Origin: a virus
Length of the DNA: 52,459 bases
Virus genome (UHGV): UHGV-0060500
Reading direction: 5' to 3' (one strand)
This document shows, piece by piece, positions 9,428 to 51,651 of this stretch. The position numbers and the translations under genes were made by a program. How positions within the stretch are numbered: the first letter of the stretch is position 1; each line of letters opens with the position of its first letter. Under the pieces are notes generated by a model, which ran no database searches, was not told where the DNA came from, and was given only the letters and a program-made list of their open reading frames with translations.

Positions 9428-9690
9428 CCCATTAGCATTAGATAGCAGTGACTGACCGCTGAACAGATCCCGCCGTTGCGTGATATTTGTTTTTCGCTTC
9501 GCAGCGACACCGGATTTTTAAAGAGCTTAAGGTAAGTGCCTTTTTGTGCCTTCAGTTATCTTTTTCCTTGCGTCTTTGCAAGTATGGCCTTACCTTGTCT
9601 GCAAGTTTACAAAATGGAATTTTAAGATCAAGGCTTAAAATACACGTTTTGTGACTTGCATCAAACTTTTTGAGGTTATAGGGTAGCGAC
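9428..9690. promoter_or_regulatory. Divergent immunity-region control region between the replication operon and the cI-like repressor
   Basis: 263 bp non-coding region between divergent operons; contains the repeated TGCAAGT elements and one copy of the dispersed GTTTACAAAATGG motif (9605-9617). Confidence 0.5.
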
Positions 9691-10369: not shown

Positions 10370-10838
10370 CCTGGGAAACACCAAAACGTAAACAGAAAAC
10401 GTTATTTATTATTTAAATATCAATGGCATATAAAATATTTTAAAAAAGTATACAAAATGGATTGACTCGATGTTTTACGGGGCGTATATTGCGAGTCAAA
10501 GGAAGGGCGCAGGTAACAAAAGCAACTTCCTGGCACTTTAAAAATCAGGCTTAACACCTTGTCAACCGTGGAGTAACTCCCCGATGGGGGACCGAAAGCG
10601 GCACTGATAACAAGGCGCATGGGGTGTTTAAAGCGTTACATCCCCCACGAAACCGCACGCAAGGCGACGAGTCAGCTTGCTTGGAGTGAGCAAGGTCACG
10701 CCGGGAACGGCGATGATTGCGGGATTAGTTGAAAGATGTTAAGCCGCTCATTAACAATCTGGTCAGCCGCTGGAAGTGCGGCAATTAACGAAGATGATTT
10801 TTTATTAAGTATCATCAAGGATATACGGAGATCAGATT
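10370..10838 (+). promoter_or_regulatory. Long GC-rich untranslated region (candidate early leftward-type promoter and antitermination/structured RNA region)
   Basis: About 470 bp without a plausible ORF, several GC-rich hairpins (CCCCGATGGGGG, GGGGTGTTTAAAGCGTTACATCCCCC), one dispersed-motif copy at 10448-10460. Confidence 0.3.
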
Positions 10839-14501: not shown

Positions 14502-14543
14502 CAGCGTGATTGCGATCACATAAATATACATTTTGTATTGTGA

Positions 14544-15787: not shown

Positions 15788-16327
15788 ATGAAAAATGATT
15801 ACGGCGGCAGCCATACGCCGAAAGAAATAAAGGACTTATGGCAAACGCCAAAACCCGTTTTTAGAGGAATGGATCGTGAATTCGAATTCGTCGCGGACGT
15901 GGCGGCAAACAAGGCAAACGCATTAATCCCGCGATATATAACCGAAGAAATGGACACGCTGCATTATCCGTGGGGAGCGGTGGCAATGCCTGGTGAGTAT
16001 GTCTGGCTTAATCCGCCATATTCGAATCCGGGGCCATTCGTTGATAAGGCAGCGATGGAACATCACCGAAATCATATTGGCTGTGTAATGTTGTTGCCCG
16101 CTGATATCTCTGTTGGCTGGTTTATGAACGGCGTGGAGACGGCAAACGAATGCCGATTAATCACGCGCGGGCGGCTGGCGTTTATCAATGCTGCGACAGG
16201 GAAACCAGCAAGCGGAAACAATAAGGGTAGCTTGTTTTTGATCTGGCATCCACGGTGCAGACATGAATGTATTTTCACGCAGATAACACGTAAAGAGCTA
16301 TATGCAAGAGGTGCAGAAAATGAGTAA
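15788..16327 (+). CDS. dam: Phage DNA N6-adenine methyltransferase (Dam-like)
   Basis: 179 aa; catalytic NPPY motif (VWLNPPYSNPG) and overall pattern of the phage N-6-adenine methyltransferase family. Confidence 0.75.
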   Translation: MKNDYGGSHTPKEIKDLWQTPKPVFRGMDREFEFVADVAANKANALIPRYITEEMDTLHYPWGAVAMPGEYVWLNPPYSNPGPFVDKAAMEHHRNHIGCVMLLPADISVGWFMNGVETANECRLITRGRLAFINAATGKPASGNNKGSLFLIWHPRCRHECIFTQITRKELYARGAENE

Positions 16328-16832: not shown

Positions 16833-17316
16833 TAGGTTATTAGCCTGCGTTTATGTCGCCGTTTTTGTGATCATCAATCTTATTGTTAATCATTGCGGCC
16901 CGTGGGTAATTCCGATCACCACGGTAGCCGCCGTGTGTGTCAATATGATGATCCGTGACCTCCTGTTATATGACGGCGGCCTGAAATGGTCGGCTACAAC
17001 ATGCGCCGCCGCTGGCGCAATCACGGTGCTGATAAATTACGACGCCGGGATGGTGGCGATCGCGTCATTCGTCGCGGTTGTTTCCGGTGCGCTTATTTCT
17101 GGCGGCGTTTACCGGGTTTTGCCTGGTGGCTTTGATTCTAAACGTTGGCCTGCAAATATAGCGTCCGCCATTGGTGATGCGTTAATTTTTCCTACGCTAT
17201 CGTTTATGGCGTTTATGCCGGAAATATCAGCTATGCAATTCATCTCAAAAATGGCAGCGGTAACGGTGATTACTATCATCATGCGACGCTACTTCACGTT
17301 TGAGGGTAGAAAATGA
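16771..17316 (+). CDS. Multi-pass membrane protein, tentatively VUT/YhhQ-like (queuosine-precursor transporter family); start possibly 16813
   Basis: 4-5 predicted TM helices; loose resemblance to YhhQ segments (PANIASAIGDALIFPTLSFMAF versus YhhQ PTASTLFGNVSDTLAFFFIAF as recalled); assignment is tentative. Confidence 0.35.
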   Translation: MTTNRYYARRGIIKMERVTIDRLLACVYVAVFVIINLIVNHCGPWVIPITTVAAVCVNMMIRDLLLYDGGLKWSATTCAAAGAITVLINYDAGMVAIASFVAVVSGALISGGVYRVLPGGFDSKRWPANIASAIGDALIFPTLSFMAFMPEISAMQFISKMAAVTVITIIMRRYFTFEGRK

Positions 17317-18095
17317 GCAGGGCTAAACATTGGTTAAATAATTGGCTTAGAAGTTGGGTGGTGTGGTCGCTGTACGACGGCAGCGGGTACGCCGTTAAAG
17401 ATTGGGCGGAAGCAGGATATAAGTGCTATTGCTTCAACTATGACGGCGCAAATCACGGCGATTATGAAGGCGTTAAAATCATTCATCCAAATATTGAATA
17501 CGTTAACGTATGGATTGACAACCATTTCCTGGTAATGTTCTCCCCTGAATTGTCTGTTTATCCAGAGCCTGACATTATCTTGGGCTTTCCTCCGTGTGAT
17601 GATCTTGCCGTGTCCGGCGCTCGTTGGTTCGCTGACAAGCGGAAGAAAGATCCTCACTTCCAGCAAAAAGCAGCGTACAACGCAAAGTTAGTAGAAACGC
17701 TGGCGAGTATGTATAACGTCCCGTGGATGGTGGAAAATCCGGTGGGCGCACTGTCAACGCTATGGCGTAAACCGGATTTTATCTTCAATCCGTGCGCTTA
17801 CGGTGGCTACCTGCCGGAAGATGACAAACATCCTGCTTTCCCGGATGTTTACCCGCCGCGCGACGCGTATACGAAGAAAACTTGTATTTGGTGCGGCAAC
17901 GGATTTAAGCAGCCTCTTTTTAGGCCTGTAGATCTTAACTCTGGTGATAACCCTGGGTGGGCGAAAACCGGAGGCAGGACGAAACGAACAAAGATGATCC
18001 GCTCACTAACACCGCGTGGCTTTGCCCGTGCTGTATTCCTGGCTAACGACCGGGCCATCACGCGGACTACGCTTAACCGCGTTTTACCGGACTAA
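17313..18095 (+). CDS. DNA cytosine-5 methyltransferase-like protein (short)
   Basis: 260 aa; motif I-like LYDGSGY, motif IV-like GFPPCDDLAVSG (PC catalytic dipeptide), motif VI-like VENPVG. Confidence 0.55.
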   Translation: MSRAKHWLNNWLRSWVVWSLYDGSGYAVKDWAEAGYKCYCFNYDGANHGDYEGVKIIHPNIEYVNVWIDNHFLVMFSPELSVYPEPDIILGFPPCDDLAVSGARWFADKRKKDPHFQQKAAYNAKLVETLASMYNVPWMVENPVGALSTLWRKPDFIFNPCAYGGYLPEDDKHPAFPDVYPPRDAYTKKTCIWCGNGFKQPLFRPVDLNSGDNPGWAKTGGRTKRTKMIRSLTPRGFARAVFLANDRAITRTTLNRVLPD

Positions 18096-18254
18096 AGTTT
18101 ACAAAATGGCGTCATTGCGTGATATGGATCACATAATGGCGCTTTTCGCCTTGTTCTGGTGTATCCATTTTGTATACTTCAAGCAAACAAAATGCTCTTT
18201 AAAAATCCGGCAGCGCTGAAATGCGTAGAAATCACCTGAAAAGGAGAGAGCATT

Positions 18255-19455: not shown

Positions 19456-19634
19456 AAAACGAAGTTAAAGATCTGCAAATAGATATTCAGCGCGACGAGC
19501 GTGATTTAGAGACGGTCCGACAAATCCAGGCTTTCCACATGCGCGAATTACTTGCGCTGAAAGAGTTCGAAAGAAAGCTGGTGCAATCCATTTCTGATCG
19601 TAAACGTCTGGCGGCACGTTATGAGGGCAAATAA
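19452..19634 (+). CDS. Hypothetical coiled-coil protein (60 aa)
   Basis: ORF coupled to rusA. Confidence 0.35.
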   Translation: MKNEVKDLQIDIQRDERDLETVRQIQAFHMRELLALKEFERKLVQSISDRKRLAARYEGK

Positions 19635-20362
19635 TGAATTTAGAATCCATTCTAAAATTCCACTTTCCTAAATCACCGCGATTATCTGACGAAAGCCGGG
19701 GCACGTCCCCGGACGCTCTTAATACGACGGATGCGCTAACCGCTGCGGGTATGGCGCAATCGCGCGTAGAGCTTGGATATAGCGCTTTTTTAGGGAAGAT
19801 GGAACTATCACAAGCCGAAAAACACAGGGCCGTAGTTTTGCTTACAGAGCGTTTAAGGGCTATGGCGAAAGATTACGAATACGTGATGGAGTTAAACGAG
19901 GCACAACGCAATGATCTTATTATTCTTGTTGCCGTTTTCGCATTTCGGGATTATTGCCAGAGTGCGGCGACCGAAAAAGTTTGCCCTAAGTGCGGCGGTC
20001 ACGGGCATTTACCAAATCCATATGGCGAATACACATCAACAATTTGCGCACGGTGCGGCGGCAAAGGCTACGTTAAAAACCATTGCCAACGTTGCAAGGG
20101 GCGCGGCGAAGTACCGGATAAAACAGCCAGCGAAGCGGCGGAAATGCCAGTATTCAAAACGTGCCAGCATTGCGGCGGGCGCGGGTACTCGCGTTACCCT
20201 GTAGATCTTGTCCGGCAGGCAGTTAATCAGCTTGTTTTCCCGGTGAGCCGATCAACATGGTGGAAGAAATACCGTGCTTTCTATGAAGACGCCATTGCTG
20301 AATTGTTCAAAGAAGAGGCGCGGGCTGACAACGAAATTAAACGAGTGACGCGGGGTGAATAA
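19634..20362 (+). CDS. Putative late-gene antiterminator Q-like protein with DnaJ-type CxxCxGxG zinc-finger repeats
   Basis: Four CxxCGG(H/K/R)G repeats (CPKCGGHG, CARCGGKG, CQRCKGRG, CQHCGGRG); position after ninG/rusA as in lambdoid phages; assignment is tentative. Confidence 0.4.
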   Translation: MNLESILKFHFPKSPRLSDESRGTSPDALNTTDALTAAGMAQSRVELGYSAFLGKMELSQAEKHRAVVLLTERLRAMAKDYEYVMELNEAQRNDLIILVAVFAFRDYCQSAATEKVCPKCGGHGHLPNPYGEYTSTICARCGGKGYVKNHCQRCKGRGEVPDKTASEAAEMPVFKTCQHCGGRGYSRYPVDLVRQAVNQLVFPVSRSTWWKKYRAFYEDAIAELFKEEARADNEIKRVTRGE

Positions 20363-23407: not shown

Positions 23408-23521
23408 GGTGTTGGACAACCATAAATGTGATCTGTATCACAATGTATACGAAATGGCATTGTTCCGGCAGTGCCGTTTTGTTATATATGAGCCACAGAA
23501 AGACGGAGGGGAGGCAAGAAG

Positions 23522-30169: not shown

Positions 30170-30317
30170 GTTATTGATTATTATCAACTTCGAAAAATTT
30201 TCGAAGATGAACAATAATAATTCTCAATTAGCTACACAAAATCTGCCTCACAATCCCTCACGAATTTTTCTATTTTTCGCGTAGCAACGCGTAAACATGT
30301 ATTCAGGAGTAAACATT

Positions 30318-38849: not shown

Positions 38850-39509
38850 TTAATTCCAGTTGCAAGCGTTTTTCACTTTGTCGATGTGGTTATAAAGACC
38901 ATCAATGTTAAACACTGCTTTCTCAATGTCGCCAGCTTCCGGCACTACTTCAATGATGAATTGTTTTTCGTTAACCAGTTTTTTAATCATTGGGATGGCT
39001 TTTTTGCCGTCCCATAATCCAAGAGCTTTATAATTAGTTGACCGCCACCACTCAGTAGCTACAGCTTTGTGAACGCCGATCCGGTAGTTAATATAAGTAG
39101 TGTCCCCGGCGTCAGTTACATGGTGTGACCATGCTACGAACATTTTTGTTTTATTACCCTGGCAAGCGATTGTTAATACCGGTTTATTCTTATCCTGTGC
39201 CTTCAGTGTCGGGAAAGCATCAAGACTTCCGCTGAATTGTTCTGCTTTCACAAAAAGGAATACGTTTTTTGCGTCCTGCATATCATCTTTTCTTTCAACT
39301 ACAAGCCACTGTTTACCAGCATTTTCTTTTTCTAACTGTGCATCGTATGCGGCTTGTTTTGCTTGTTGTTCTGCAAGCCATTTAGCATTTTTCTCTGCTA
39401 ATGCTTGTTGCTCTTGATTGGTCACTATAGGCGCTTTTTCATTATCCTCATTGCAACCAACCAGACCCAATACCGCCGCAATCATTGCCACTTTTGCTAA
39501 CCGTTTCAT
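38850..39509 (-). CDS. Lipoprotein (219 aa), antisense moron in the tail module
   Basis: Signal peptide with lipobox LVGC (MKRLAKVAMIAAVLGLVGC); Gln/Ala-rich linker. Confidence 0.6.
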   Translation of the reverse strand: MKRLAKVAMIAAVLGLVGCNEDNEKAPIVTNQEQQALAEKNAKWLAEQQAKQAAYDAQLEKENAGKQWLVVERKDDMQDAKNVFLFVKAEQFSGSLDAFPTLKAQDKNKPVLTIACQGNKTKMFVAWSHHVTDAGDTTYINYRIGVHKAVATEWWRSTNYKALGLWDGKKAIPMIKKLVNEKQFIIEVVPEAGDIEKAVFNIDGLYNHIDKVKNACNWN

Positions 39510-39636
39510 AACCCACCACGCTAACTTGATTTACTGACCATTCCCTTTAGCTTCCTTATACAAAATGGAGTCGTTGAAGTAAAGCCATTTTGTATAAAAT
39601 AGATACACAGATCACATTTTTGCATGAGGTTAAATC

Positions 39637-41979
39637 ATGGCTACCAGTGTAGGTACAATTTATTACGAAGTTGATGCGAAAACTGGTCAACTTCTCGTTG
39701 CACAACGACAGGCAGACCAGGCCTTTGATCGTATAGAGCGCGGCGCAAAACAGGCTGACCGCCAGGTAAACACCCTGAAAACATCCATCAAGGCACTGAC
39801 CAGGGTTATCCATCTGCTAATTGCTGCGGAGGCTGTGCGCCAATTTATGGATATGGCGGAGCAAGCAAAAATGCTTCGCGTAAAAATCAAAATGCTTACG
39901 GGCGATGCGGAGTCCGCCGGACGGGTTTTCGACGGCCTGAAAGCAATATCCAGGGAGACGGGGCAGAGCCTGAAAGATACTGGCGAATTATGGCAAGGCC
40001 TGGCTATCTCACTAAAAAACACCTCCGCTACGGAAGGGCAATTGCTTAACCTGGTTGGCACTATTCAGAAAATGGGTGCATTAGGCGGCGCGTCAGCGGA
40101 ACAGATGTCTAACTCAATGCGTCAATTCCGTCAGTCTATCGACGGCGGTGTTCTTCGTGCCGAAGAATTTAACAGCCTGCTTGAAAATACGCCGACCATC
40201 GTACAAACAATGGCCCGCCATATGGGATTATCAATGGGCCAGTTCCGCGCCGAAATGCTGGACGGCAAGATCACGGCTGAAAGGATGGTTAACGCAATAC
40301 AGGCGGCTACGCAGGAAACAAACGATAAGTTTGCTCAGTTGCCGCGCACATCCGGCATGGCTATCAATGAGCTTAAAGTAGAAATTATGGGCCTTGTTGA
40401 GCAGTTGGATGATCTTTTTGGCGTGTCAGATGGCGTTGTTTCAGCTATCGACTTGATCACGAAAGGCGTTAAAGGGCTTGGCGATGGCGCTAAATTCGCT
40501 AAAACCTGCTTCGACACACTCAAAACGGCTGGTAGCGAATTTATCGACATGTTTGATGATGTGGCTGTTAAGGCTGGAGAGGTGGCAGAGAAGATCATCG
40601 CAATGGTGACGCCAATCAAGGCGCTAATGGATGGCTATAAATGGATGAAGGAGGTAGTAGGAGAGCAAACCGACGAATATAACAGCAACTACGAGAAGAA
40701 ATACGGGAAGACCGTTGGCAAGGTCATGCAACTACAGGATGATCTGACCGCAGCAATCCAGGCTACAGAAGAAGCAAGGAAAAATGAACAGAATGCTGCC
40801 AATGACGGAGCGATTACCGGATTCGACAAGCCAGTAGACAAGCCGAAAAAACAGAAAAAAGAGAAGAAATCGGAAGCTGATCGGCTTGGTGACAAAGGTA
40901 TAAGCGTTTCTGATCAGTATAACAAAGACGCCGCCGCCATGCGCAAAGCGTTGGAGAACGGCAAGGCCATTGATGCTGCATTTGCCCAGGGTAAAATCAC
41001 GCTCCTTGAGTACCGCGCCGCGCAAAAAGGGATCGGCAAGGAACTGAAAGAAGAATTAGCACAAATTCCGGTAGATGAATTGCGTGATAAATGGTCACAA
41101 ATAGTAAGCCCGATGGATCAGCTAAAAGGCGAAGTTGACCCCATCCAGCAGGCGCAAAATGAATGGGCCATCCGTAAGCAAATGCTTATAGACCTGGGCG
41201 CTACTGAAGCGCAACAGAAACAGGAATTGTTAGCCTATGAGCAACAGATCCGCGATCTGAAATGGGAACAATGGCAGGCGCAAAGCGACACAAACGGCCT
41301 TATCGGTGATTGTGTTAATGGCCTTAAAGGCGGAATGAGTAATGCGCTTGTTGGCCTGTTAAACGGCACTCAATCATTGAGTGATGTTTTTGCTAACTTA
41401 GGAAGCAATATACTCGGCAATATCGGTAACAGACTCTCAGACATAGCTGCAAACTGGATAGCAGATCAGATCATGATGGAGACACAAAGCAAGGCCACGC
41501 AAACAAGTACAACAGCAAGCGCGGTAGCAGCTCAGGGAAGCATTGCTGCGGCGGCGGCCCCAGCAGCGGCGGCAACTGCGGCGTCAACTGGCGGTAGCTG
41601 GGCGGCGGCTGGTTCGGCGGCGCTCACTGCGATCATGTCGCTGGCTACGTCAATTTTCGGCGGCGGTCGCTTTAATGGTGGTAGCGTCATTGGTGGTAAT
41701 ATGTACCGCGTAGGGGAACACAACAGGCCGGAGCTATTCCAGACATCTAACGGCAATCAATATATGATCCCTGGCGAGAACGGCAGAGTTATTCCTGGCC
41801 GTGATATTGGCGGCGGTGGCGGTATTAGTATGCCTGTCAGTATCAGCATTCAGACCACGAACGGATTCAGCGACGAAGACAGCCGCAGACTTGAATTAAC
41901 AATGGAACGTGTAGCCATGAAAATGATAACAAGGGAATCTCAAAGACCAGGCGGAATGTTGCAACCTCGCCGCAAATAA
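39637..41979 (+). CDS. Tail tape measure protein
   Basis: 780 aa, helical N-terminal two thirds, Gly/Ala-rich C-terminal region; position before gpM/L/K/I/J homologues. Confidence 0.8.
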   Translation: MATSVGTIYYEVDAKTGQLLVAQRQADQAFDRIERGAKQADRQVNTLKTSIKALTRVIHLLIAAEAVRQFMDMAEQAKMLRVKIKMLTGDAESAGRVFDGLKAISRETGQSLKDTGELWQGLAISLKNTSATEGQLLNLVGTIQKMGALGGASAEQMSNSMRQFRQSIDGGVLRAEEFNSLLENTPTIVQTMARHMGLSMGQFRAEMLDGKITAERMVNAIQAATQETNDKFAQLPRTSGMAINELKVEIMGLVEQLDDLFGVSDGVVSAIDLITKGVKGLGDGAKFAKTCFDTLKTAGSEFIDMFDDVAVKAGEVAEKIIAMVTPIKALMDGYKWMKEVVGEQTDEYNSNYEKKYGKTVGKVMQLQDDLTAAIQATEEARKNEQNAANDGAITGFDKPVDKPKKQKKEKKSEADRLGDKGISVSDQYNKDAAAMRKALENGKAIDAAFAQGKITLLEYRAAQKGIGKELKEELAQIPVDELRDKWSQIVSPMDQLKGEVDPIQQAQNEWAIRKQMLIDLGATEAQQKQELLAYEQQIRDLKWEQWQAQSDTNGLIGDCVNGLKGGMSNALVGLLNGTQSLSDVFANLGSNILGNIGNRLSDIAANWIADQIMMETQSKATQTSTTASAVAAQGSIAAAAAPAAAATAASTGGSWAAAGSAALTAIMSLATSIFGGGRFNGGSVIGGNMYRVGEHNRPELFQTSNGNQYMIPGENGRVIPGRDIGGGGGISMPVSISIQTTNGFSDEDSRRLELTMERVAMKMITRESQRPGGMLQPRRK

Positions 41980-41983
41980 ACTA

Positions 41984-42012
41984 AACCCCGGTGCAATGCC
42001 GGGGTTATTTTT
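41984..42012 (+). terminator. Rho-independent terminator after the tape measure gene
   Basis: AACCCCGGTGCAATGCCGGGGTT followed by ATTTTT. Confidence 0.7.
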
Positions 42013-42065
42013 CGTATTTATAAACGACCATTCCGCGCGATATATCCCCTTTCGAATATCTCGAC

Positions 42066-42320
42066 TCACTTATGAGTGCCTTTCACGCCACATAACTTGT
42101 TATAGGCATGGTGCTCAACAATTAACCAAACCTTCAAATCTTCGCTAAACAGCCTCCAATCAAGATTGATATCCATTTTGTATCCGTAACCGTCGCGTAA
42201 CTTTTTGGGGTAAACTTCTTTTCTCAGAAAGGCTTTAAGTAATTCCTTACCTTTCTTGATGATCCGGTCCTGTGCGTTTTTCTGTGCTTTCAGATTTCTG
42301 TCAATCGCTACCAGTTTCAT
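42066..42320 (-). CDS. Small basic protein (84 aa), possible RelE/YafQ-like toxin; antisense moron
   Basis: C-terminal ...DW...GTHK loosely resembles the YafQ C-terminal pattern (EPDW...RTGTHAALF) as recalled; low certainty. Confidence 0.4.
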   Translation of the reverse strand: MKLVAIDRNLKAQKNAQDRIIKKGKELLKAFLRKEVYPKKLRDGYGYKMDINLDWRLFSEDLKVWLIVEHHAYNKLCGVKGTHK

Positions 42321-42337
42321 AACTCACCCCATCATCC

Positions 42338-42493
42338 TTAGTTAAGTGCCTTCAGGAAGAAGTCCCGGTATTCATCTTCTTTCGCATTCATCATGAATTG
42401 ACCGTATTTGAATGCGTCGTCGAAACCCTTAACGATTGCTATTTCCACTTGTTCGAATGCGTTATTTAGCATTACTACTACATAGCGTTTCAT
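42338..42493 (-). CDS. Small protein (51 aa) upstream of and coupled to the 84 aa gene (possible antitoxin)
   Basis: ORF ending 17 bp before the next start; MKRYVVVMLNNAFEQVEIAIVKGFDDAFKYG... Confidence 0.35.
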   Translation of the reverse strand: MKRYVVVMLNNAFEQVEIAIVKGFDDAFKYGQFMMNAKEDEYRDFFLKALN

Positions 42494-42660
42494 TTTGGGC
42501 CTCCTTCGTTGGTACTACTTTCTTCTTGCTTTCTATATACATCTTGTTGCGTGCTATGTGAAGCCATTTTGTAAACTAGCTATAATCATTGTGACAATGA
42601 TCTTATTTTTCGCGTAGAAGCGCGTAAAGATATATACAAAATGTAACTTGTGGGGGTTTT

Positions 42661-43014
42661 ATGCCGGAAGTGTTCAGATGGACGCCGCAAAGAAGCTACA
42701 GCGTGACCAGGAAGCCAGACGTATCTGTTGTTAAGCTGGGCGATGGTTATGAGCAAAGACAGGTAAAAGGTATCAATCCATTGCTTGATAGCTACACCCT
42801 GGTGTTTAAAGGCAGTAGCGCCGGATGTGGTGATGGTGGAAACGTAGCAATCCAGGCGGAAGCATTCTTGAGGGCGCGCGGCGCGGTCGAGGCTTTTTAC
42901 TGGTCGCCGTCAATGGATAACGTGCAAAGGCTTTTTGTCTGTCGGCAATGGAGCATGACTAAAGACGGGCCTTTGTACACGCTAAACGCAACGTTTGAGC
43001 AAGTTGTTGGCTAA
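42661..43014 (+). CDS. Minor tail protein M (lambda gpM homologue)
   Basis: 117 aa; FRW...GDGYEQRQ...FYWSP...TFEQVVG matches lambda M closely as recalled. Confidence 0.85.
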   Translation: MPEVFRWTPQRSYSVTRKPDVSVVKLGDGYEQRQVKGINPLLDSYTLVFKGSSAGCGDGGNVAIQAEAFLRARGAVEAFYWSPSMDNVQRLFVCRQWSMTKDGPLYTLNATFEQVVG

Positions 43015-43211
43015 TGGGGGTTGTTATGTACGGGACTTGTGTAGTTGACAAAACTTACGCTTTTACATTGTTTGACGACTATGAGATCAACGACCTTACT
43101 GTAAAAGCTGACAACGGCGATATATGGTATCTTCACGACGTTGGTGATGGGTACGTTGGGTGTAGATCCCGGGAAGGGAAGGAGGTTTTATTTTTGGTTG
43201 ATGGCGTATAA
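43014..43211 (+). CDS. Hypothetical protein (65 aa)
   Basis: ORF coupled to gpM and followed by a terminator. Confidence 0.4.
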   Translation: MGVVMYGTCVVDKTYAFTLFDDYEINDLTVKADNGDIWYLHDVGDGYVGCRSREGKEVLFLVDGV

Positions 43212-43213
43212 AC

Positions 43214-43243
43214 ACGACCCCGCGCGAAGCGGGGTTATTTTTA
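43214..43243. terminator. Bidirectional rho-independent terminator
   Basis: GACCCCGCGCGAAGCGGGGTT followed by ATTTTTATT; between convergent genes. Confidence 0.65.
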
Positions 43244-43367
43244 TTCTATTTCCATTAATGCTATATTTTCTGCTATCGTTTTCCAGTCCAGATCTACAGC
43301 ATGAACGCCAAATACTATCAACCCCATTATTATTAGCGCCAAAACTTCTATTTTTATAATCAGTCAC

Positions 43368-43616
43368 CTATAAGTTATCACGCAGATAATTAACGCCCTT
43401 ATCAGTGACGAATGAATGGTTAACCTGGTTTTCATCCGTCATGATGATGAATAACTTTTCATGTAGGTATTTCGCTTTCGGGTACAGCGTTAAACAGACC
43501 TGGTACAGTATCCCGCGCTCAATCAGCAAATCAATAAATTCGTGTTCATGATAACCGATGAGGCGGGCGGCCTGTTTCAACGTGTACACATAATCACCGT
43601 GATTGCGCCGCCCCAT
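43368..43616 (-). CDS. Small HTH-like protein (82 aa), antisense moron
   Basis: YTLKQAARLIGYHEHEFIDLL resembles a helix-turn-helix. Confidence 0.4.
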   Translation of the reverse strand: MGRRNHGDYVYTLKQAARLIGYHEHEFIDLLIERGILYQVCLTLYPKAKYLHEKLFIIMTDENQVNHSFVTDKGVNYLRDNL

Positions 43617-43625
43617 GTTGCCGCC

Positions 43626-43973
43626 TTATTTATCGAATGCTGAAAGGTTATCGATACAGAAATCTTTCGCCGCTTTTTCGTATTCGCGTTTTGCTTCTGG
43701 ATCGTCAGCCGGGAAACCTTTTGCGTGTATTTCACCAGGGCAAGACTGGTCCATAGAATCTGCATAATAAGCAGTGAAGCTACCATTAATATCTTTCGGG
43801 TTCATATCTTCCACCTCATCAACTATCTGTACCGGATTAGCAGCATATTTCACTGGATGGCCTAAACTACATTCAAGAATCCTGCCTTCTTCCAGGGCTA
43901 CTTCTTCGCTATCAAATAATCCGAAACACTCCTTGCTACCACTTAACCACACATCAAGACTGTATTTTTTCAT
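43626..43973 (-). CDS. Hypothetical protein (about 115 aa) with N-terminal region paralogous to the upstream small gene
   Basis: MKKYSLDVWLSGSKECFGLFDSEEVALEEGRILECSLGHPVKY; SD GAGG before the ATG at 43973. Confidence 0.45.
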   Translation of the reverse strand: MKKYSLDVWLSGSKECFGLFDSEEVALEEGRILECSLGHPVKYAANPVQIVDEVEDMNPKDINGSFTAYYADSMDQSCPGEIHAKGFPADDPEAKREYEKAAKDFCIDNLSAFDK

Positions 43974-44142
43974 TTTTGTTAGCCTCATATTTGACAGGTT
44001 CGATCTGGTATCCCAAAAGGCGGTCATCCTCAGCAAGTAAAAGCGCGTCAACCAATGCTTCACCCTCGTCGTCATACAGGGCGATAACCTTTTCCCTACC
44101 GTCTGTCATGAATACCGTCAACTTCCATAGCTTTTCAGTCAT
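43954..44142 (-). CDS. Hypothetical small protein (about 62 aa), paralogue of the N-terminus of the next gene
   Basis: MTEKLWKLTVFMTDGREKVIALYDDEGEALVDALLLAEDDRLLGYQIEPVKY; SD GGAGGTG. Confidence 0.45.
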   Translation of the reverse strand: MTEKLWKLTVFMTDGREKVIALYDDEGEALVDALLLAEDDRLLGYQIEPVKYEANKNEKIQS

Positions 44143-44271
44143 AACGCACCTCCGCGCCATTTTGTTAACTATGCTTCCGTTTGAGTAAAATATACATATT
44201 GTAAAAACCGCGATCAATCCATTTTGGTATGATTTAGCGTGACGCAGATCACAGAATGACAAGGTGAGAAA

Positions 44272-44976
44272 ATGCGCAATATTCCGAGAGAAATGATTAT
44301 TGATTCCGTCGATGCCGGAGTCGGCGCGGTAATTGACTTGTTTGAATTAGACCTCACGCCCCTGGGTGGCGAGGTTATCCGCTTCCATTCCGGCGTGAAT
44401 GGCTATTACGGCCCGGTTATCTGGAAGGGGGTGGCTTACAACAGCTACCCTATCGAGGCCACTGGCTTCGAAATGAAAAACGAGGGTGTCTATTCACGCC
44501 CGCAAATGGTTGTAGCCAACATTGGCGGCCTAATCACCGGGATGAATAACGATTTCAACGACCTGCGAGGAATGAAAGTTACACGCCGCCAGGTGGAAGT
44601 AAAATACCTGGACGCCATCAACTTCCCCAACGGCAACCCGGATGCAGATCCGTCTATCGAGGCGGTGTCTTTTTACGTCGTTGAGGCGATGAGCGAAGAA
44701 ACAGCCGACCAGGTGCAATATGAGCTGTCAACGCCAATTGATGCTGACAAGGCGGTTATCCCAGGGCGCACAATCCTTGCTGACGTTTGCCAATGGCAAT
44801 ATCGCGGCGACGGTTGCGGATACAGTGGCGGCCCTGTAGCTACTGATAAAGACGAATCGACCAGCGATCCAAAGCTGGATAAATGCAGCCACCGCCTGAG
44901 CGGTTGCCGTTTACGTTTCCCGCGCCCGAATCCGTTACCAATTTCATGTTTCCCAGGATCGAGCAAGGTGGGTTGA
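44272..44976 (+). CDS. Minor tail protein L (lambda gpL homologue)
   Basis: 234 aa; CQWQYRGDGCGYSG cysteine cluster and overall similarity to lambda L as recalled. Confidence 0.85.
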   Translation: MRNIPREMIIDSVDAGVGAVIDLFELDLTPLGGEVIRFHSGVNGYYGPVIWKGVAYNSYPIEATGFEMKNEGVYSRPQMVVANIGGLITGMNNDFNDLRGMKVTRRQVEVKYLDAINFPNGNPDADPSIEAVSFYVVEAMSEETADQVQYELSTPIDADKAVIPGRTILADVCQWQYRGDGCGYSGGPVATDKDESTSDPKLDKCSHRLSGCRLRFPRPNPLPISCFPGSSKVG

Positions 44977-44978
44977 TT

Positions 44979-45710
44979 ATGGCACTTGAAGATAAAATGA
45001 TTCGCTATGCAGCAGCCCACCCGCGCGAGGAAGTGTGCGGGCTGGTGATAGATAACGATTATTTTTACCCGTGCGCTAACGTGTCTGAAACGCCGCACAA
45101 CAGCTTTAAAATCTCGCCTGACGATTATATCAAAGCTGACGAATTGGGCGTTATAACAGCCGTTTTCCACTCTCACGTTGAAGATATTCCGGTATTGTCG
45201 GCACGGGATCGACAACAGCAGGTTATTTCCGGCCTGCCGTGGTTTTTATGTTCCGGTGGCATGGTGAGGAAATTCCGCCCGGTGGCGCACCTGTTAGGCC
45301 GTAAATTTGAACACGGGAAAACAGATTGCTACTCGCTTTTTCGTGACGCCTATCACCTTTGCGGCGTGGATCTGCCTGACTTTGAACGCCACGATGGGTG
45401 GTGGCTGCGTGGGGAAAACCTGTACATAAAAAACCTGCCATTGAACGGGTTTTTCATGGTTGATGCGCAAAGCATTCAGCCTGGTGACGTGATTATTCGC
45501 CAGCCGTTCAAGGGTGCTGACCCATGTCACGCGATGATTTACCTGGGCGATAACACTGTTTTGCATCATGACAATGCCGGACTGCTAAGCCGCCGCGAGC
45601 AAATGCGGCCCGCGTATGTTCGACAAACGCATTCAATATGGAGATCTGACAAATGCTCAAATTTAGATTTACGGGCAATCTTCGAAGATATTACGGCAAA
45701 GTGTGTTTAA
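44979..45710 (+). CDS. Tail assembly protein K (JAB/MPN plus NlpC/P60 domains)
   Basis: JAMM motif HSHVEDIPVLSARD; NlpC/P60-type Cys in DCYSLFRDAYHLCG; start Met after the L stop. Confidence 0.85.
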   Translation: MALEDKMIRYAAAHPREEVCGLVIDNDYFYPCANVSETPHNSFKISPDDYIKADELGVITAVFHSHVEDIPVLSARDRQQQVISGLPWFLCSGGMVRKFRPVAHLLGRKFEHGKTDCYSLFRDAYHLCGVDLPDFERHDGWWLRGENLYIKNLPLNGFFMVDAQSIQPGDVIIRQPFKGADPCHAMIYLGDNTVLHHDNAGLLSRREQMRPAYVRQTHSIWRSDKCSNLDLRAIFEDITAKCV

Positions 45711-46183
45711 ACGTTGATACGCCAGCACAAGGACTTAGCCTATTGACCGCGCAGAATCAGGAGTTCAAGAAGGCTTTTTTAAATACACCTTTGCGGTTAC
45801 GGATTGCCGGGAAAGATTATAACGAAAAGACGGCCCCGGCAGCGGTTAATAGTAAATACCCTGACGGAACTACCGTCATTATTGCGCCAGTAGTTGAAGG
45901 CGGTATTGCTGGGATTGGTGTTGTAGGCTGGATCCTGATTGGTGTTTCGGTGGTTAGCGTTGCGTTCTCAATCTTTATGTCCCGCAACATGAAGATAAAA
46001 ACATCGGCAGAAAGCGCACAAGATAACACCATAACGAACAACACCTACACCAGCATTGAAAACAAGGTGGGCCAGGGTAGACCAGTGCCAATACTATTAG
46101 GTGAAATGAAAATAGGTTCAAACGTCGGATCGTTAGGCATAGACACAAGCAACAATAGAGACGCCTTAGACGTTGTAAGTTAA
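45653..46183 (+). CDS. Tail assembly protein I-like
   Basis: 176 aa between K and J, hydrophobic central segment; overlaps the K 3' end as in lambda. Confidence 0.6.
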   Translation: MLKFRFTGNLRRYYGKVCLNVDTPAQGLSLLTAQNQEFKKAFLNTPLRLRIAGKDYNEKTAPAAVNSKYPDGTTVIIAPVVEGGIAGIGVVGWILIGVSVVSVAFSIFMSRNMKIKTSAESAQDNTITNNTYTSIENKVGQGRPVPILLGEMKIGSNVGSLGIDTSNNRDALDVVS

Positions 46184-46196
46184 CAGGAGAAAAACC

Positions 46197-49100
46197 ATGA
46201 GTAGCGGCGGCGGCAAAGCCAAAACACCAACATTATTGAACGATAACCTGTATCACAAACAGTTTTATCGTGTTTTAGATATTCTCAGCGAAGGGCCGAT
46301 ATACGGTCCGGTAAACCAGAAAGCGCCATTGAATGACGTGATGCTTAATGACACTCCTGTTACTGACGCAAACGGGAATACATCAATTCCGGGGATTAGT
46401 ATAGCCTGGCGCAACGGCACGGCTGACCAATCGCCGATTAATGGTTTTAACGCCATTGAGTCAACCGTTATTGTCAACGCAAAGGTAACTCACGACACAC
46501 CAATAATCAGGACTGTTTCAGATCCAAACGTTACCCGCGTCAGGTTGAATCTTGGTGTTGATGCTCTCGTTCAGTCAGATGAAAAGGGCAATCAATATAA
46601 TACATCCGTCATGTTGATGGTTGATGTTAAACCGTCATCATCTTCTACGTGGTCGCTGATTAAAGACATACACATTGGCCCTGGTAAACAAAGCGGTGAA
46701 TACCTGGAAGCTCACATCATTAAAGCGCCGGATGAAAAACCGTTTGATATTCGCGTTCGTCGCATAACACCAGACAGCAACGGCGATCTATTGCGGAATG
46801 ATACGCGGTGGAGTAGTTACAGCGAAATAATAGATGATAATCTGTCTTATCCTCATACCGCTGTAGCTGGCGCCGTAATTGACCATGATCAGTATACTGA
46901 TACGCCTACCCGCACCTATCACCTTCGCGGCCTGATTGTTGATGTGCCTGACAACTACAACCCTGAAACGCGCACATATTCAGGTTTATGGCTTGGTGGA
47001 TTTAAAAAGGCGTATACCAATAACCCTGCATGGCTTTTCCGGTATCTGGTTAAAAACGAGCGCTTTGGACTTGCTCGACATGCTGGTTACATTGATGTTG
47101 ATGATGGCGCTTTGTACGTGCTTTCTCAATACTGCGATCAGTTGGTTGATGATGGCTATGGTGGCCTTGAACCTCGCATGACGCTTAACGCTTACATTAC
47201 GGAGCAAATGAGCGCCCGCGACCTACTGGATAACATCGCAGGTATGTTCCGTGGTATCGCGTTATGGGACGGACAACGTCTTACCGTGATGATTGATGCG
47301 CCACAAGATCCAATCGCCACCATCACAAATGCAAACGTCGTTGATGGCGCGTTTACTCGTTCAAGTATCGCACGCGCAGAATGCTACAACGCCGTGATCG
47401 TATCCTGGACTGACCCTGAAAACGGCTGGGAGCAATCAAAAGAATATGTCGCAGATGATAAACTAATCGCCCGTGATGGTTATAACGAAACCACGTTGGA
47501 GGCGTTCGGTTGCACTTCACGCGGGCAAGCGCACCGCGCTGGTAAATGGCTGATCGAAACAGCGAAACGCGAGCCGTCAAAATTCACATTTAAAATGGCC
47601 CGTGACGCCATTCACTTTACGCCGGGGGATATAATCGAGATCCTCGATAATAATCGCGCAGGCGCTCGTTTAGGCGGTCGCATCGTGGCGAACAATGGCA
47701 GAGCGATCACGGTCGACAAGGTTGATTCTGAATATATCGCGGCTGGCGACACCATCAGCTTACTTGATAGCGATGGTAAATTTAAAAAACACCAGATCAT
47801 CGGAGTTAACGGGAACATTATCACCCTTGCAGCCGCCCCGGCGTGGATTCGTAACGGCACTGTTTTTGCTGTATCAACCAACGCAGCAAAACCCGTTTTA
47901 TGTCGAATCACCAGTGTAGCAGAAACAGAAAATAACAGCGTATACACCATCGAGGCCGCACAGCATGATCCACATAAGCAGGCCGTAGTCGATAATGGCG
48001 CAATCTTCGAGATCAATAACGACACGCTTAATCACTTCCGCGTGCCGAACATTGAAAATCTGAAGGTGTTAAACGTTGGATCTGAAACGGTTCAATGTCG
48101 CGCAACATGGGAAACACAGACGACAACGCGTCGCCTGACCTTTGAGATTCGCGTGTATAACGCCGAAGGCGCTGTAGTTAAAAGCTACGAAACCACGAAT
48201 TACAGTTATGATTTTTATGGCATTGATGCTGGCAACTACTCATTAGGCATTCGTGGCAGAAATGACACGGGCATGAAGGGTGCGGAAAGCATTGTCGATC
48301 TGGTTATTGGCGCACCAGCGGCCCCAGTTGGCGTTAATTGGGTTCCCGGTGTATTCCAGGCTACAGTTTACCCGATCAGCAGAACAACGCTCACCACTGA
48401 TACCAGTTACGAGTTTTATTACTCAGGTGAAACGCAGATCACTGATCCGGCATCAATAACCACTAAAGCACAATATACCGGGCGTGGTCATCAGTGGACG
48501 TTTGGCGGCATGAATACAGGTCACACATATTACGTTTATGTGCGCGCGCGTAACGCTTTTGGTGTGTCTGACTTTGTGGAAGCGTCAGGTAAGCCAACAG
48601 AAAACTTTGATGAAATTACCGATTACGTCACCAAAGACGTAATGAATTCCAAACAATTTAAAGAAATGGTTGGTGACATTAAAGATCTAGGCGACCGCAC
48701 TGATCTTATCGAAAGCGCTACGAATGACCTTAAAACTGCTACTGACAACCTCAAAACTGCAACTGATAATCTGACCAACATAACTGACGATTTAAGGACT
48801 GAAACTGACAACCTAACCATAGAAACAGGATCAATAAAAGCTGATACTGATACGCTCAAAAAAGAAACGGAAGATCTTTATAAAAAAGTTAAGGAAAACG
48901 CCGATGATATTGGACAGCATGAGTCGAGAATCGACTCGCTGGAGGTGTCTAGCGAAAAAGTTGGCAGCGAACTGGCGCAAGCAAAAGCAAGTCTGCAAAA
49001 CGCCTCACTTGCTCTTATTAATAACTCGCTTGCACAGACTAACACTCGCGTAACTCTTACCGCTCAGTACAAGAAAGGCAGGACAGAGACGAAAGCGGAA

Positions 49101-51167
49101 ATTGACCGCATTGACAACGTTATCGCTGAAGAGAAAAAAGCGACAGCGGAATCACTGGAAACCATCACGGCAGAAATGAATGTGATGGACACAAACCTTA
49201 AAGGTCAGATCTCTAATGTGCAACGCGCAGTAGCTGACGAGGCCAGCGCCCGCGCTGAAGCTATTAACGGTGTAAATGCCTCAATAAGCAATCTTGACAA
49301 GAAAACTGACGCCAGCGTAAACCGTCTTGATCAGGCAATTGCAGACGAAACAAGTGCGCGTACTCAGGCTATCAGCGACGTGAACGCAAGTATCTCAACA
49401 CTTGACAAGAAAACTGACGCCAGCGTTAAGCGCCTCGATAATGCAATATCAGATGAAACGCAGGCAAGAAGCGACGCAATAACAGTGGTTAAAGCTGATT
49501 TAACAACGCTTGAAAATAACACAAATGCCAGTGTTAGCCGTCTTGATCAAGCTATCGCTGATGAATCAAGCGCACGTGCTCAGGCGATATCAGGTATCAG
49601 CGCGACGCTTGGCGGCGTTAAAAGTGAGGTTGATAAAAACAGCGACGAGATAGATCAGGCGAAAGCAAGTCTGCAAAACGCATCTCTGGCGCTTATTAAT
49701 AACTCAATGGCGCAAAGCAAGATGAGCACTGTTATTGAGGCGAAATACAGGAAAGGACAAACAAAAACAAAAGCGGAAATAGCAAGGGTAGACACAGCAA
49801 TCGCAGATGAGGCGAGCGCACGCGCAGAAGCTATTAGCAACGTTAACGCCAGCGTCAGTAGTCTTGAAAGCAAAACCGACGCGAGCGTTTCCCGTCTTGA
49901 TAAAGCAATCGCAGATGAGGCGAGCGCACGCGCAGAAGCTATTAGCGGGGTTAATGCGTCAATTTCCACGCTCGATAGCAAGGTGACAAGCAACGTAACC
50001 AGGATGGATAAAGCGATCGCAGATGAGAAGAATGCACGCACTGACGCAATCAGCAGCCTTAACTCATCGCTTACCAGTACGATTAATTCGAAAGTATCCG
50101 AAGTGTCAACTGCACTTTCTACGCATGAAACATCAAGCGCGGAAAAATTTGGCCAGATCTCGGCATCTTTCGACGATGTAAACTCAAGCATCACGGAATG
50201 GTCACAGGCTATGGCAACGGCAGACGAGGCATTGTCAACCAGAATCGACCAGTTGAAAGTAACTATTAACGGAAACACAACGGCGATAGAAACGACATCA
50301 AAAGCACTGACTGACTTCAAAGGTAACGTTGATGCGTCATATTCAATTAAGATTGCCACTGATAAAAACGGTATGAAATACGCTACAGGAATGTCGCTCG
50401 GCCTTACTGGTAGCGGGACTAACGTTCAATCGCAGTGTATTTTCCTCGTTGACCGTTTCGTGCTTATGACTGCGGCAGGTGGCTCCTATCAGACCCCGTT
50501 CTATGTTACTAACGGTGCTTGCTACATCCGTGATGCGTGGATCAGAGACGCATCAATCACTACCGCGAAGATTGCGCAGCAAATTCAGTCAACCAACTAT
50601 AAAGCTGGTTCGGCTGGCTGGATGCTAAATAAAAACGGCAATGCGGAGTTCAACAACGTCACTGTACGCGGTACGGTGTACGCAACATCTGGTAAATTCA
50701 CTGGTGAGATTCAGGCCACAAGCGGGAAGTTTAAAGGTACAGTAGAGGCAAAGTCATTTGTCGGTGACGTTGCTAACATGGGGGTTGGTCCAGATCGAGT
50801 GCTTGGGCATAACGGAAGTTATAGCGCAACCATCACATATAAAGACAGCACGGATAATGCATTGACGAAATCAGTTATGCTTATGGCGACTATTTCATTA
50901 ATGTCTGGTGAATATAGATCCACTTATAACGTAACGTTTAGTTGCGGAGATAAAAACAAAACAATTTCATATTACGTGCCTTATGGTGGATGCACATTAA
51001 CAGTGCAATGCGCTTTTTCTGGTTTAAAAGCATCAGATATTATCGGGAAAATATATTGTCCTCAAACATCATCATCTGAAGGATACGCATATTGTACCGC
51101 GTTGTATTCTCCAACAATGATAGTAGCAAGAGGCACCGGATCATTTAGAACATCAACGACAGCATAA
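46197..51167 (+). CDS. Host specificity protein J (central tail fibre / tip attachment protein)
   Basis: 1656 aa; N-terminal two thirds typical of lambda J-like proteins, followed by a long coiled-coil repeat region and a C-terminal receptor-binding region. Confidence 0.85.
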   Translation: MSSGGGKAKTPTLLNDNLYHKQFYRVLDILSEGPIYGPVNQKAPLNDVMLNDTPVTDANGNTSIPGISIAWRNGTADQSPINGFNAIESTVIVNAKVTHDTPIIRTVSDPNVTRVRLNLGVDALVQSDEKGNQYNTSVMLMVDVKPSSSSTWSLIKDIHIGPGKQSGEYLEAHIIKAPDEKPFDIRVRRITPDSNGDLLRNDTRWSSYSEIIDDNLSYPHTAVAGAVIDHDQYTDTPTRTYHLRGLIVDVPDNYNPETRTYSGLWLGGFKKAYTNNPAWLFRYLVKNERFGLARHAGYIDVDDGALYVLSQYCDQLVDDGYGGLEPRMTLNAYITEQMSARDLLDNIAGMFRGIALWDGQRLTVMIDAPQDPIATITNANVVDGAFTRSSIARAECYNAVIVSWTDPENGWEQSKEYVADDKLIARDGYNETTLEAFGCTSRGQAHRAGKWLIETAKREPSKFTFKMARDAIHFTPGDIIEILDNNRAGARLGGRIVANNGRAITVDKVDSEYIAAGDTISLLDSDGKFKKHQIIGVNGNIITLAAAPAWIRNGTVFAVSTNAAKPVLCRITSVAETENNSVYTIEAAQHDPHKQAVVDNGAIFEINNDTLNHFRVPNIENLKVLNVGSETVQCRATWETQTTTRRLTFEIRVYNAEGAVVKSYETTNYSYDFYGIDAGNYSLGIRGRNDTGMKGAESIVDLVIGAPAAPVGVNWVPGVFQATVYPISRTTLTTDTSYEFYYSGETQITDPASITTKAQYTGRGHQWTFGGMNTGHTYYVYVRARNAFGVSDFVEASGKPTENFDEITDYVTKDVMNSKQFKEMVGDIKDLGDRTDLIESATNDLKTATDNLKTATDNLTNITDDLRTETDNLTIETGSIKADTDTLKKETEDLYKKVKENADDIGQHESRIDSLEVSSEKVGSELAQAKASLQNASLALINNSLAQTNTRVTLTAQYKKGRTETKAEIDRIDNVIAEEKKATAESLETITAEMNVMDTNLKGQISNVQRAVADEASARAEAINGVNASISNLDKKTDASVNRLDQAIADETSARTQAISDVNASISTLDKKTDASVKRLDNAISDETQARSDAITVVKADLTTLENNTNASVSRLDQAIADESSARAQAISGISATLGGVKSEVDKNSDEIDQAKASLQNASLALINNSMAQSKMSTVIEAKYRKGQTKTKAEIARVDTAIADEASARAEAISNVNASVSSLESKTDASVSRLDKAIADEASARAEAISGVNASISTLDSKVTSNVTRMDKAIADEKNARTDAISSLNSSLTSTINSKVSEVSTALSTHETSSAEKFGQISASFDDVNSSITEWSQAMATADEALSTRIDQLKVTINGNTTAIETTSKALTDFKGNVDASYSIKIATDKNGMKYATGMSLGLTGSGTNVQSQCIFLVDRFVLMTAAGGSYQTPFYVTNGACYIRDAWIRDASITTAKIAQQIQSTNYKAGSAGWMLNKNGNAEFNNVTVRGTVYATSGKFTGEIQATSGKFKGTVEAKSFVGDVANMGVGPDRVLGHNGSYSATITYKDSTDNALTKSVMLMATISLMSGEYRSTYNVTFSCGDKNKTISYYVPYGGCTLTVQCAFSGLKASDIIGKIYCPQTSSSEGYAYCTALYSPTMIVARGTGSFRTSTTA
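48960..50060 (+). repeat. Nested in-frame repeats within J: duplicated block of about 690 bp (starting near 48963 and 49661) containing repeats of a 34 aa unit
   Basis: Repeated peptide DASV.RLD.AIADE.SARA.AIS.VNASIS.LD.KT and duplicated QAKASLQNASLALINNS...KAEI segments visible in the translation. Confidence 0.7.
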
Positions 51168-51197
51168 AAAACGGGGCATAAGCCCCGTTTTTTTTTA
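51166..51197. terminator. Strong bidirectional rho-independent terminator after J
   Basis: AAAAACGGGGCATAAGCCCCGTTTTTTTTT. Confidence 0.8.
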
Positions 51198-51207
51198 TGC
51201 ATTGTTT

Positions 51208-51453
51208 TTATTTTTTACACCCATCATTTACACCAGAAAAATGGATAGGTAAATTACATTCACTGTCAATAATTTTACCTTGTAGTTGTTTTTCTTTCCA
51301 TGAGTCAGTATTGAAATAACTCGAACGTTGGTTATCAAGGCCAGTATCACCATATTGAGCAGTGCCAGCATCACTCTTATCTGTCGAATTTACAGAAGCA
51401 AAAGCACCAAAAGACAGAGCTGATAAGATGCAAGCAACAATTAGTTTTTTCAT
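51208..51453 (-). CDS. Small secreted protein (about 81 aa, signal peptide), moron downstream of J
   Basis: MKKLIVACILSALSFGAFA signal peptide; SD AAGGTGA; longer ORF-track start to 51510 unlikely. Confidence 0.5.
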   Translation of the reverse strand: MKKLIVACILSALSFGAFASVNSTDKSDAGTAQYGDTGLDNQRSSYFNTDSWKEKQLQGKIIDSECNLPIHFSGVNDGCKK

Positions 51454-51651
51454 TGTATTCACCTTACTGTTTGTTTTACTGTCATTTGTTGTTCGTGATG
51501 ATCCACCCATCCGATGAGCAAATCACCGCAGAAGCTATCATTTCGTATGTTGATATAGATCAAAAAAATACATTATGTATAAGCCCAAAGTGTAACACAG
51601 ATCACAAAATGGTAGAATTGTTTAGTTAATTAACAAAACGGAGTTATTGCG

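Follow-up and report, generated by a model that had tools for sequence, protein, structure and literature searches.

Morons, accessory genes carried by prophages, can lie within late operons under promoters of their own, as bor and lom do in phage lambda. Coliphage promoters can also answer to a host regulator: in phage T1, pir, dam and recE are directly controlled by the cyclic AMP (cAMP) receptor protein with its ligand, cAMP-CRP (PMC6737242). The class I prototype is lac P1. Its two-fold symmetric site spans 22 bp, has TGTGA-N6-TCACA as its core and is perfect in the promoter-distal half but weaker in the proximal one; the site center precedes the first base of the -35 hexamer by 25.5 bp (about -61.5). 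The symmetric CRP consensus of Escherichia coli, AAATGTGATCTAGATCACATTT, contains two GATCs, and most natural sites depart from this consensus in one of their halves (PMC2504297). Here we set a repeated 9-mer, CAGATCACA, from the virus genome UHGV-0060500 beside these systems; the whole stretch analyzed, 52,459 nucleotides long, is called the window. A first-pass annotation had described the 9-mer as a conserved element before three tail-gene starts whose Dam site, GATC, could couple promoter activity to methylation. We favor, with a probability of about 0.65, the reading that CAGATCACA, or TGTGATCTG on the opposite strand, is the well-conserved half of host cAMP-CRP sites that would act at these promoters. 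The analysis itself shows a sequence match, enrichment, a conservation pattern and promoter geometry.

The DNA of the window comes from a temperate E. coli phage in the mEp021/mEpimmI group and shares about 85% identity with published phages. Prophages in several E. coli chromosomes match it at 100% identity, so its host is E. coli. The only paper on the mEpimmI group covers the repressor, an N-like antiterminator and nut sites, and the literature on mEp021 and mEpimmI makes no mention of CRP, of late promoters or of the dispersed motif described below. CRP control has not yet been described for this phage group.

A count over the whole window finds CAGATCACA as exact matches on the + strand at 39608-39616, 44245-44253 and 51598-51606, the three positions reported before, and in a fourth, overlooked copy on the - strand at 23427-23435. 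In the tail cluster, 20 nt separate the end of the first copy from the start codon of the tape measure gene (39637), 18 nt the second from that of gpL (44272) and 45 nt the third from that of the tail fibre gene (51652), where the first-pass annotation gave about 20-45 bp. Each of the three lies in a gap with a reverse-strand accessory gene to its left and a forward tail gene to its right. A copy of the dispersed motif CCATTTTGTA(T/A)A precedes each of them, as had also been noted (at 39585 and 44219, with a two-mismatch copy at 51570). The four copies compare with 0.33 expected, and a count of four was reached in 1 of 100 shuffles; the shorter GATCACA occurs 13 times in the window against 5.8 expected. 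One of its two variants singled out earlier is correctly placed at 14514-14520; the other lies at 18127-18133, one base from the position first given (18126-18132).

Read as TGTGATCTG, the 9-mer is half of the palindrome TGTGA-N6-TCACA, and together with its flanking bases it forms a 16-bp site. The presence of GATC in the element is then explained by the CRP consensus, which itself contains this tetranucleotide. Six matches to TGTGA-N6-TCACA with at most one mismatch occur in the window against 1.47 expected, and exact GTGA-N6-TCAC occurs seven times against 0.56 expected, a count reached in none of 100 shuffles. Further exact GTGA-N6-TCAC matches were seen within tail genes K and J, at 45343-45356 (GTGACGCCTATCAC) and 47602-47615 (GTGACGCCATTCAC), with spacers that share the start CGCC. 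With an approximate, indicative matrix based on 16 classical CRP sites, five sites reach 14 bits or more (null mean 0.44) and eight reach 12 bits or more (null mean 1.76), and neither count was reached in 200 simulations. The six highest-scoring positions, 23424, 18115, 9647, 44235, 51588 and 14502, all fall within promoter gaps. When matches to the 22-bp consensus were counted without weights, only the site at 23427 stood out from the background, agreeing with AAATGTGATCTAGATCACATTT at 18 of 22 positions. The prophage has at least six to eight CRP-like sites, all in promoter gaps (Table 1). We refer to those holding the three tail-cluster copies as sites 1, 2 and 3 and to the others by their first position.

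For conservation, about 30 distinct versions of each region were gathered from related viral contigs and the features kept in them were counted. Among these relatives the pentamers are conserved more strictly than the tetranucleotide GATC: at 18118 it is lost in 9 of 32 versions while both half-sites are kept in all 32, and of the 181 instances of six sites in the relatives, 22 have no GATC while the pentamers persist. The GTGA and TCAC of 14505 are retained in 20 of 32 relatives, one of which has perfect pentamers around a wholly different spacer that lacks GATC. At 23427 and site 1 invariance is limited to the promoter-distal half. Because the pentamers are kept where GATC is lost and the spacer varies, the constrained unit is the pentamer pair and not the Dam tetranucleotide, and this pair is the signature of a dimeric CRP-type protein. 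The earlier proposal of a regulatory element in promoter regions is therefore upheld, as the element is real and conserved, and its definition as a GATC-centered 9-mer gives way to TGTGA-N6-TCACA.

Both strands were scanned for sigma-70-like promoters within 75 bp of each site; all promoters and start sites discussed here are predicted. The -35 hexamer of the best promoter starts 25.5-26.5 bp from the site center at 23427, at 18118, at 9650 and, for the leftward promoter, at site 1. The real lac P1 sequence, confirmed at 100% identity in E. coli genomes, gives 25.5 bp and -61.5 by the same measurement. Site 1 is centered at -60.5 of the best-scoring promoter near it (25.5 bp), 18118 at about -59.5 (25.5 bp) and 9650 at -60.5 of TTGATC-16-TAAACT on the - strand (26.5 bp). 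A weak promoter read by hand at 14505, TTGTGA-16-TAAGCC (TAAACT in many relatives), falls below the scan threshold and has the same spacing (25.5 bp, -59.5). The center of 42590 lies 35.5 bp from the -35 of a leftward TTCACA-17-TATATA, at about -70.5, one helical turn further out. In all four copies of CAGATCACA the promoter-distal half-site is TGTGATCTG; degeneracy falls on the promoter-proximal half in 23427 as well as in site 1, and in lac too the proximal half is the weaker. Read on the - strand, site 1 is TGTGATCTGTGTATCT, with the perfect half distal to a leftward promoter that faces the lipoprotein gene and not the tape measure gene. A stringent promoter tool made a single detection, the leftward promoter at site 2, so the remaining promoters come from the looser scan. 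Both hexamers of that promoter are almost invariant among relatives, and the site is centered at about -63.5. The promoter at 23460-23488 is conserved across relatives with three different downstream gene sets.

Table 1. Predicted CRP-like sites, promoters, genes and motif copies in the window, with features kept among relatives
Feature	Position	Strand	Sequence or match	Remarks	Conservation in relatives
Site 1	39601-39616		AGATA-CACAGA-TCACA	Holds 9-mer 39608-39616; 9.9 bits	Left half varies (AGAGA, AGATA, others); TCACA 31/31; 9 spacer forms; GATC 30/31
Site 2 (44238)	44238-44253		CGTGA-CGCAGA-TCACA	Holds 9-mer 44245-44253; 1 mismatch to TGTGA-N6-TCACA; 16.6 bits	CGTGA 33/33; TCACA 32/33; 11 spacer forms; GATC 31/33
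Site 3	51591-51606		TGTAA-CACAGA-TCACA	Holds 9-mer 51598-51606; 1 mismatch; 15.6 bits	
Site 23427 (fourth copy)	23427-23442		TGTGA-TCTGTA-TCACA	0 mismatches; 19.7 bits, top score in the window	Distal half GTGATCT invariant 25/25; right half drifts; 7 spacer forms; GATC 25/25
Site 18118 (variant noted earlier)	18118-18133		CGTGA-TATGGA-TCACA	1 mismatch; 17.5 bits	(C/T)GTGA 32/32; TCACA 32/32; 14 spacer forms; GATC 23/32
Site 14505 (variant noted earlier)	14505-14520		CGTGA-TTGCGA-TCACA	1 mismatch; 13.6 bits	
Site 9650 (CRP-like, no GATC)	9650-9665		TGTGA-CTTGCA-TCAAA	1 mismatch; 17.0 bits; between repressor gene and leftward early promoter	
Site 42590 (weaker CRP-like)	42590-42605		TGTGA-CAATGA-TCTTA	Gap before gpM	
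Predicted leftward promoter, site 1	39555-39583	-	-35 TTTACT (39583 to 39578); 17-bp spacer containing CCATTTTG; -10 TATAAG (39560 to 39555)		
Predicted leftward promoter, site 2	44189-44217	-	TTGATC-17-TATATT	Stringent tool and own scan	
Predicted rightward promoter	23460-23488	+	TTGTTC-17-TATATA, TGn extended -10	Site 23427 centered at -60.5	
Predicted rightward promoter	18151-18178	+	TTGTTC-16-TATACT	Followed by nutR2 (published; second rightward nut, or antitermination, site), ninG and Q	
Candidate rightward extended -10 before gpL	44226-44233	+	TGgTATGAT	Site 2 center at +5.5	
Candidate rightward extended -10 before tail fibre gene	51610-51618	+	TGgTAGAAT	Site 3 center at -26.5	Well conserved
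Dam-family N6-adenine methyltransferase gene	15788-16327	+	PF05869, E = 2.5e-51		
VasI/TagO-like lipoprotein gene, accessory	38850-39509	-	PF11319, E = 1.2e-15	Annotation on E. coli chromosomes: TagO	
Operon of small genes of unknown function	43368-44142	-			
Gene for 81-aa protein	51208-51453	-	Signal-peptide-like N-terminus	Left of site 3	
Dispersed-motif copies, examples	5387-5396, 9608-9617, 10449-10460, 39557-39568	-			
Dispersed-motif copies, examples	18165-18176, 39585-39596, 42564-42575, 44157, 44219	+			

The prophage sites also differ from lac P1. They lie in a prophage, at back-to-back divergent promoters, and are embedded in a phage-specific repeated motif; the center of site 2 is at -63.5, and no promoter can be assigned to site 3. 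Several of these features weigh against CRP as the ligand, together with others. Site 2 sits 2-3 bp off the ideal class I phase. The scan of both strands within 75 bp found no convincing leftward promoter at site 3, whose center lies at about -73.5 of a weak promoter or at -26.5 of a rightward one, neither being a clean class I fit. Site 1 is the weak member of the set: only its TCACA half is intact in the window, the second half, AGATA (AGAGA in 13 of 31 relatives), is poor, and its score is not significant alone, about seven such sites being expected by chance. Among the 31 relatives this score ranges from 6.8 to 15.8 bits and reaches at least 12 bits in 13. The repeated modules may be paralogous, in which case the CRP-like sites are not independent, and the matrix is an approximate one. 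The GA that adjoins TCACA in sites 1-3 varies less than the remainder of the spacer, and such conservation goes beyond the preference of CRP at that position. The promoters and start sites are predictions, and CRP binding, its direction of action and transcription in this phage are all inferred from DNA sequence.

The neighboring genes give a second view of the tail-cluster sites. The lipoprotein gene is the likely target of the site 1 promoter, and the operon at 43368-44142 is likely the target of the site 2 promoter. Where a reverse gene precedes the tail fibre gene, as it does in 28 relatives, site 3 is present in all 28. In three others (L021, L015 and L035) the gap between J and the tail fibre gene is only about 110 bp, there is no reverse gene, and site 3 is absent (-6.4 bits in L021). 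Exceptions that count against the CRP reading are L010 and L041, where a 210-bp gap holds site 3 without a reverse open reading frame of at least 45 aa, and L029, which retains site 2 though the reverse operon is gone; because of these three, the link between sites and accessory genes is suggestive and not strict. The arrangement resembles that of morons such as bor and lom in that accessory genes, reverse-strand or autonomous, are set among the tail genes with a promoter region of their own and are present or absent as units among relatives. To our knowledge, no moron-type genes have been described that share a CRP site as their common regulatory input. When we asked whether the CRP site travels with the VasI-like gene into other contexts, no genome contigs matched, and the viral contigs that did belong to the same phage group only.

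Mosaic and deletion boundaries coincide with these elements. In L029 (about 9876-10000) the junction of the operon deletion falls at a dispersed-motif copy, CCATTTTGTTAAC, corresponding to 44157 in the window, and in L007, L041 and L042 similarity upstream of the tape measure gene stops directly after GATCACA(AAA).

If the palindromes are operators, their ligand could also be a phage-encoded regulator or another host factor that shares the TGTGA-N6-TCACA specificity, perhaps as partner of a factor recognizing CCATTTTGTA. In favor of this, the sites occur in close linkage with the dispersed motif, which is specific to the phage and nearly invariant among relatives, and at site 3 and 18118 the right half runs straight into a motif-like ACA(A/T)AATGG. 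We nevertheless hold this alternative to be unlikely, as the match extends into the CRP flanks (AAATGTGATCT) and the spacing to the promoter is the class I spacing of lac. No Pfam match to the Crp/Fnr family (cNMP_binding, HTH_Crp) was found among 15 open reading frames of at least 170 aa, mostly from the early region, and some smaller ones; several large and most small frames, many small early ones among them, lie outside that scan. The main rightward early promoter (10461-10495) has no CRP-like site, so the sites are not immunity operators.

The phage does encode a Dam-like methylase, as the first-pass annotation stated (Table 1). A 260-aa open reading frame at 17313-18095, the putative cytosine methyltransferase of the mEpimmI paper, has no Pfam match; the clear methylase is the Dam-family gene. 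GATC could be the functional core of the element, its methylation by the host or phage enzyme altering the binding of a regulator, possibly CRP itself, or of RNA polymerase. Methylation state or replication would then set promoter activity, perhaps with ON and OFF subpopulations as the outcome, in a Dam-dependent epigenetic switch of the pap, agn43 or opvAB type. Every one of the six main sites has one GATC flush with a pentamer, the tetranucleotide is kept in 159 of the 181 instances, and the conserved GA at sites 1-3 fits the same idea. CRP blocks Dam at GATCs within CRP sites, and such loci can be bistable, with heterogeneous expression (PMC7708049). As at the GATCs of Salmonella nanA and dgoR that stay undermethylated (PMC7708049), GATC here lies within a putative CRP half-site, where CRP and Dam could compete; each prophage site has a single GATC, and other parts of the element are better conserved than this tetranucleotide. 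Methylation as the core function seems quite unlikely to us, given that the pentamers are stricter than GATC, that some relatives carry CATATCACA at site 2 or CATACATCACA at site 1, and that the strong 9650 site has no GATC at all. GATC is moreover common throughout the window (253 occurrences against 171 +/- 14 expected under a first-order Markov model; 4.8 per kb window-wide versus 6.5 per kb in promoter gaps), and the CRP consensus alone accounts for its presence.

The first-pass annotation tied the element to the starts of tail genes, and it might accordingly belong to rightward tail-gene promoters, as an initial transcribed or pause element after a motif-type -10 that helps, for example, in loading the Q antiterminator. 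Sites 1-3 and 42590 do have candidate -10s, 7-14 nt upstream of the element, with predicted starts 3.5-8.5 bp before the site centers. The phage has a Q-family gene (PF03589), and ACAGAT resembles the lambda pause element AACGAT. The -10-like reading of the element is not conserved, however, relatives having ATAGAT, GTAGAT, CTGGAT or ATACAT, and for this reason we rejected a sigma-70 pause element. The rightward -10 hexamer before gpL is disrupted in 4 of 13 distinct sequences (TGTGAT or CATGAT), and on this reading the two-fold symmetry of 23427, 18118, 14505 and 44238 would go unexplained. The fourth copy, at 23427, has no downstream gene in the orientation concerned, site 1 has lac-like spacing toward the leftward promoter and site 2 is about 2 bp from it, and the three relatives without site 3 keep the ribosome-binding site of the tail fibre gene and its -10 (as TAAAAT). 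The tie to tail-gene starts is thus doubtful, and a part for the element in rightward initiation or pausing is very unlikely. Chance recurrence of a functionless 9-mer, compatible with the one shuffle in 100 that also gave four copies, is hardly credible for a palindromic element that is conserved in relatives, confined to promoter gaps and set at a fixed distance from promoters.

In the CRP reading, high cAMP, as under poor carbon supply, would lead a CRP dimer to occupy the predicted sites and to recruit RNA polymerase through the C-terminal domain of its alpha subunit, with the -35 beginning about 25 bp away, the class I arrangement of lac P1. At site 1, and with worse phasing at site 2, this would activate a left-pointing promoter that reads into reverse-strand accessory genes inserted in the tail cluster. 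Class I activation would extend to the rightward promoters at 14552, 18165 and 23474. The weak candidate rightward promoters place the centers of site 1, site 2 and 42590 at +3.5 to +8.5, so bound CRP could damp them by overlap; at site 3, where the center is at -26.5, it would repress. As in phage T1, the host CRP would then work on several promoters of one coliphage and couple them to carbon status, here as a prediction. In T1, CRP represses and governs the switch from lysogeny to lysis, whereas the geometry in this phage points mainly to activation, of accessory genes and internal promoters (PMC6737242).

The highest-scoring CRP-like site, 23427, is placed before a conserved extended -10 promoter that heads a block of small open reading frames, lysis and structural genes. 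A late promoter of the lambda type next to Q was not found: Q (19634-20362) is followed by no non-coding gap, and no clear candidate appears up to 22340. With no such gap after Q, the promoter at 23460-23495 becomes a candidate late promoter, and late expression from it might respond to catabolite status. An interplay of CRP and Dam at the GATCs of these sites is improbable on the sequence evidence. We give equally little weight to its possible consequence, that competition between the two would make prophage expression, and entry into late development through the lysis/structural promoter at 23474 and the nutR2/Q promoter at 18165, carbon-dependent and possibly heritably ON or OFF.

The dispersed motif CCATTTTGTA(T/A)A is present in about 20 copies on both strands and is nearly invariant among relatives. 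Inverted pairs stand 28 bp apart at 23446/23474 and 39557/39585. The motif occupies the spacer and -10 of predicted promoters and, when reversed, lies directly upstream of the -35 of the opposite promoter, as at the main early promoter, where TATACAAAATGG-ATTGACT spans 10449-10466. A reverse-oriented copy, ACAAAATGG at 51604-51612, overlaps site 3, and some copies form the palindrome ATACA-N3-TGTAT. By eye the motif does not fit an IHF or TyrR box, and a regular extended -10 was rejected because its TG usually abuts TA.

Some other features of the window were recorded. A perfect 8-bp inverted repeat, TTGACTCG ... CGAGTCAA, at 10461-10499 brackets the main rightward early promoter, TTGACT-17-TATATT, and is a possible repressor operator pair. 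Perfect FNR-type palindromes, TTGAT-N4-ATCAA, occur at 51550-51563 and 30174-30187; the first, with the reverse secreted-protein gene on one side and site 3 on the other, appears as TTGAT or TTGAC-N4-ATCAA in most relatives. A search of the window against Rfam gave no matches.

Control by CRP would correct the view of a methylation switch acting on tail genes, and would do so with ordinary regulation and not a new mechanism. If CRP binds, the mEpimmI prophages, which are widespread in gut E. coli, tie accessory genes (the lipoprotein, a secreted protein and genes of unknown function) to the carbon status of the host, and the same may hold for some internal promoters, those that precede Q and the lysis and structural genes. 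The CRP reading would also offer a simple way to learn when lysogens express the accessory genes of unknown function.

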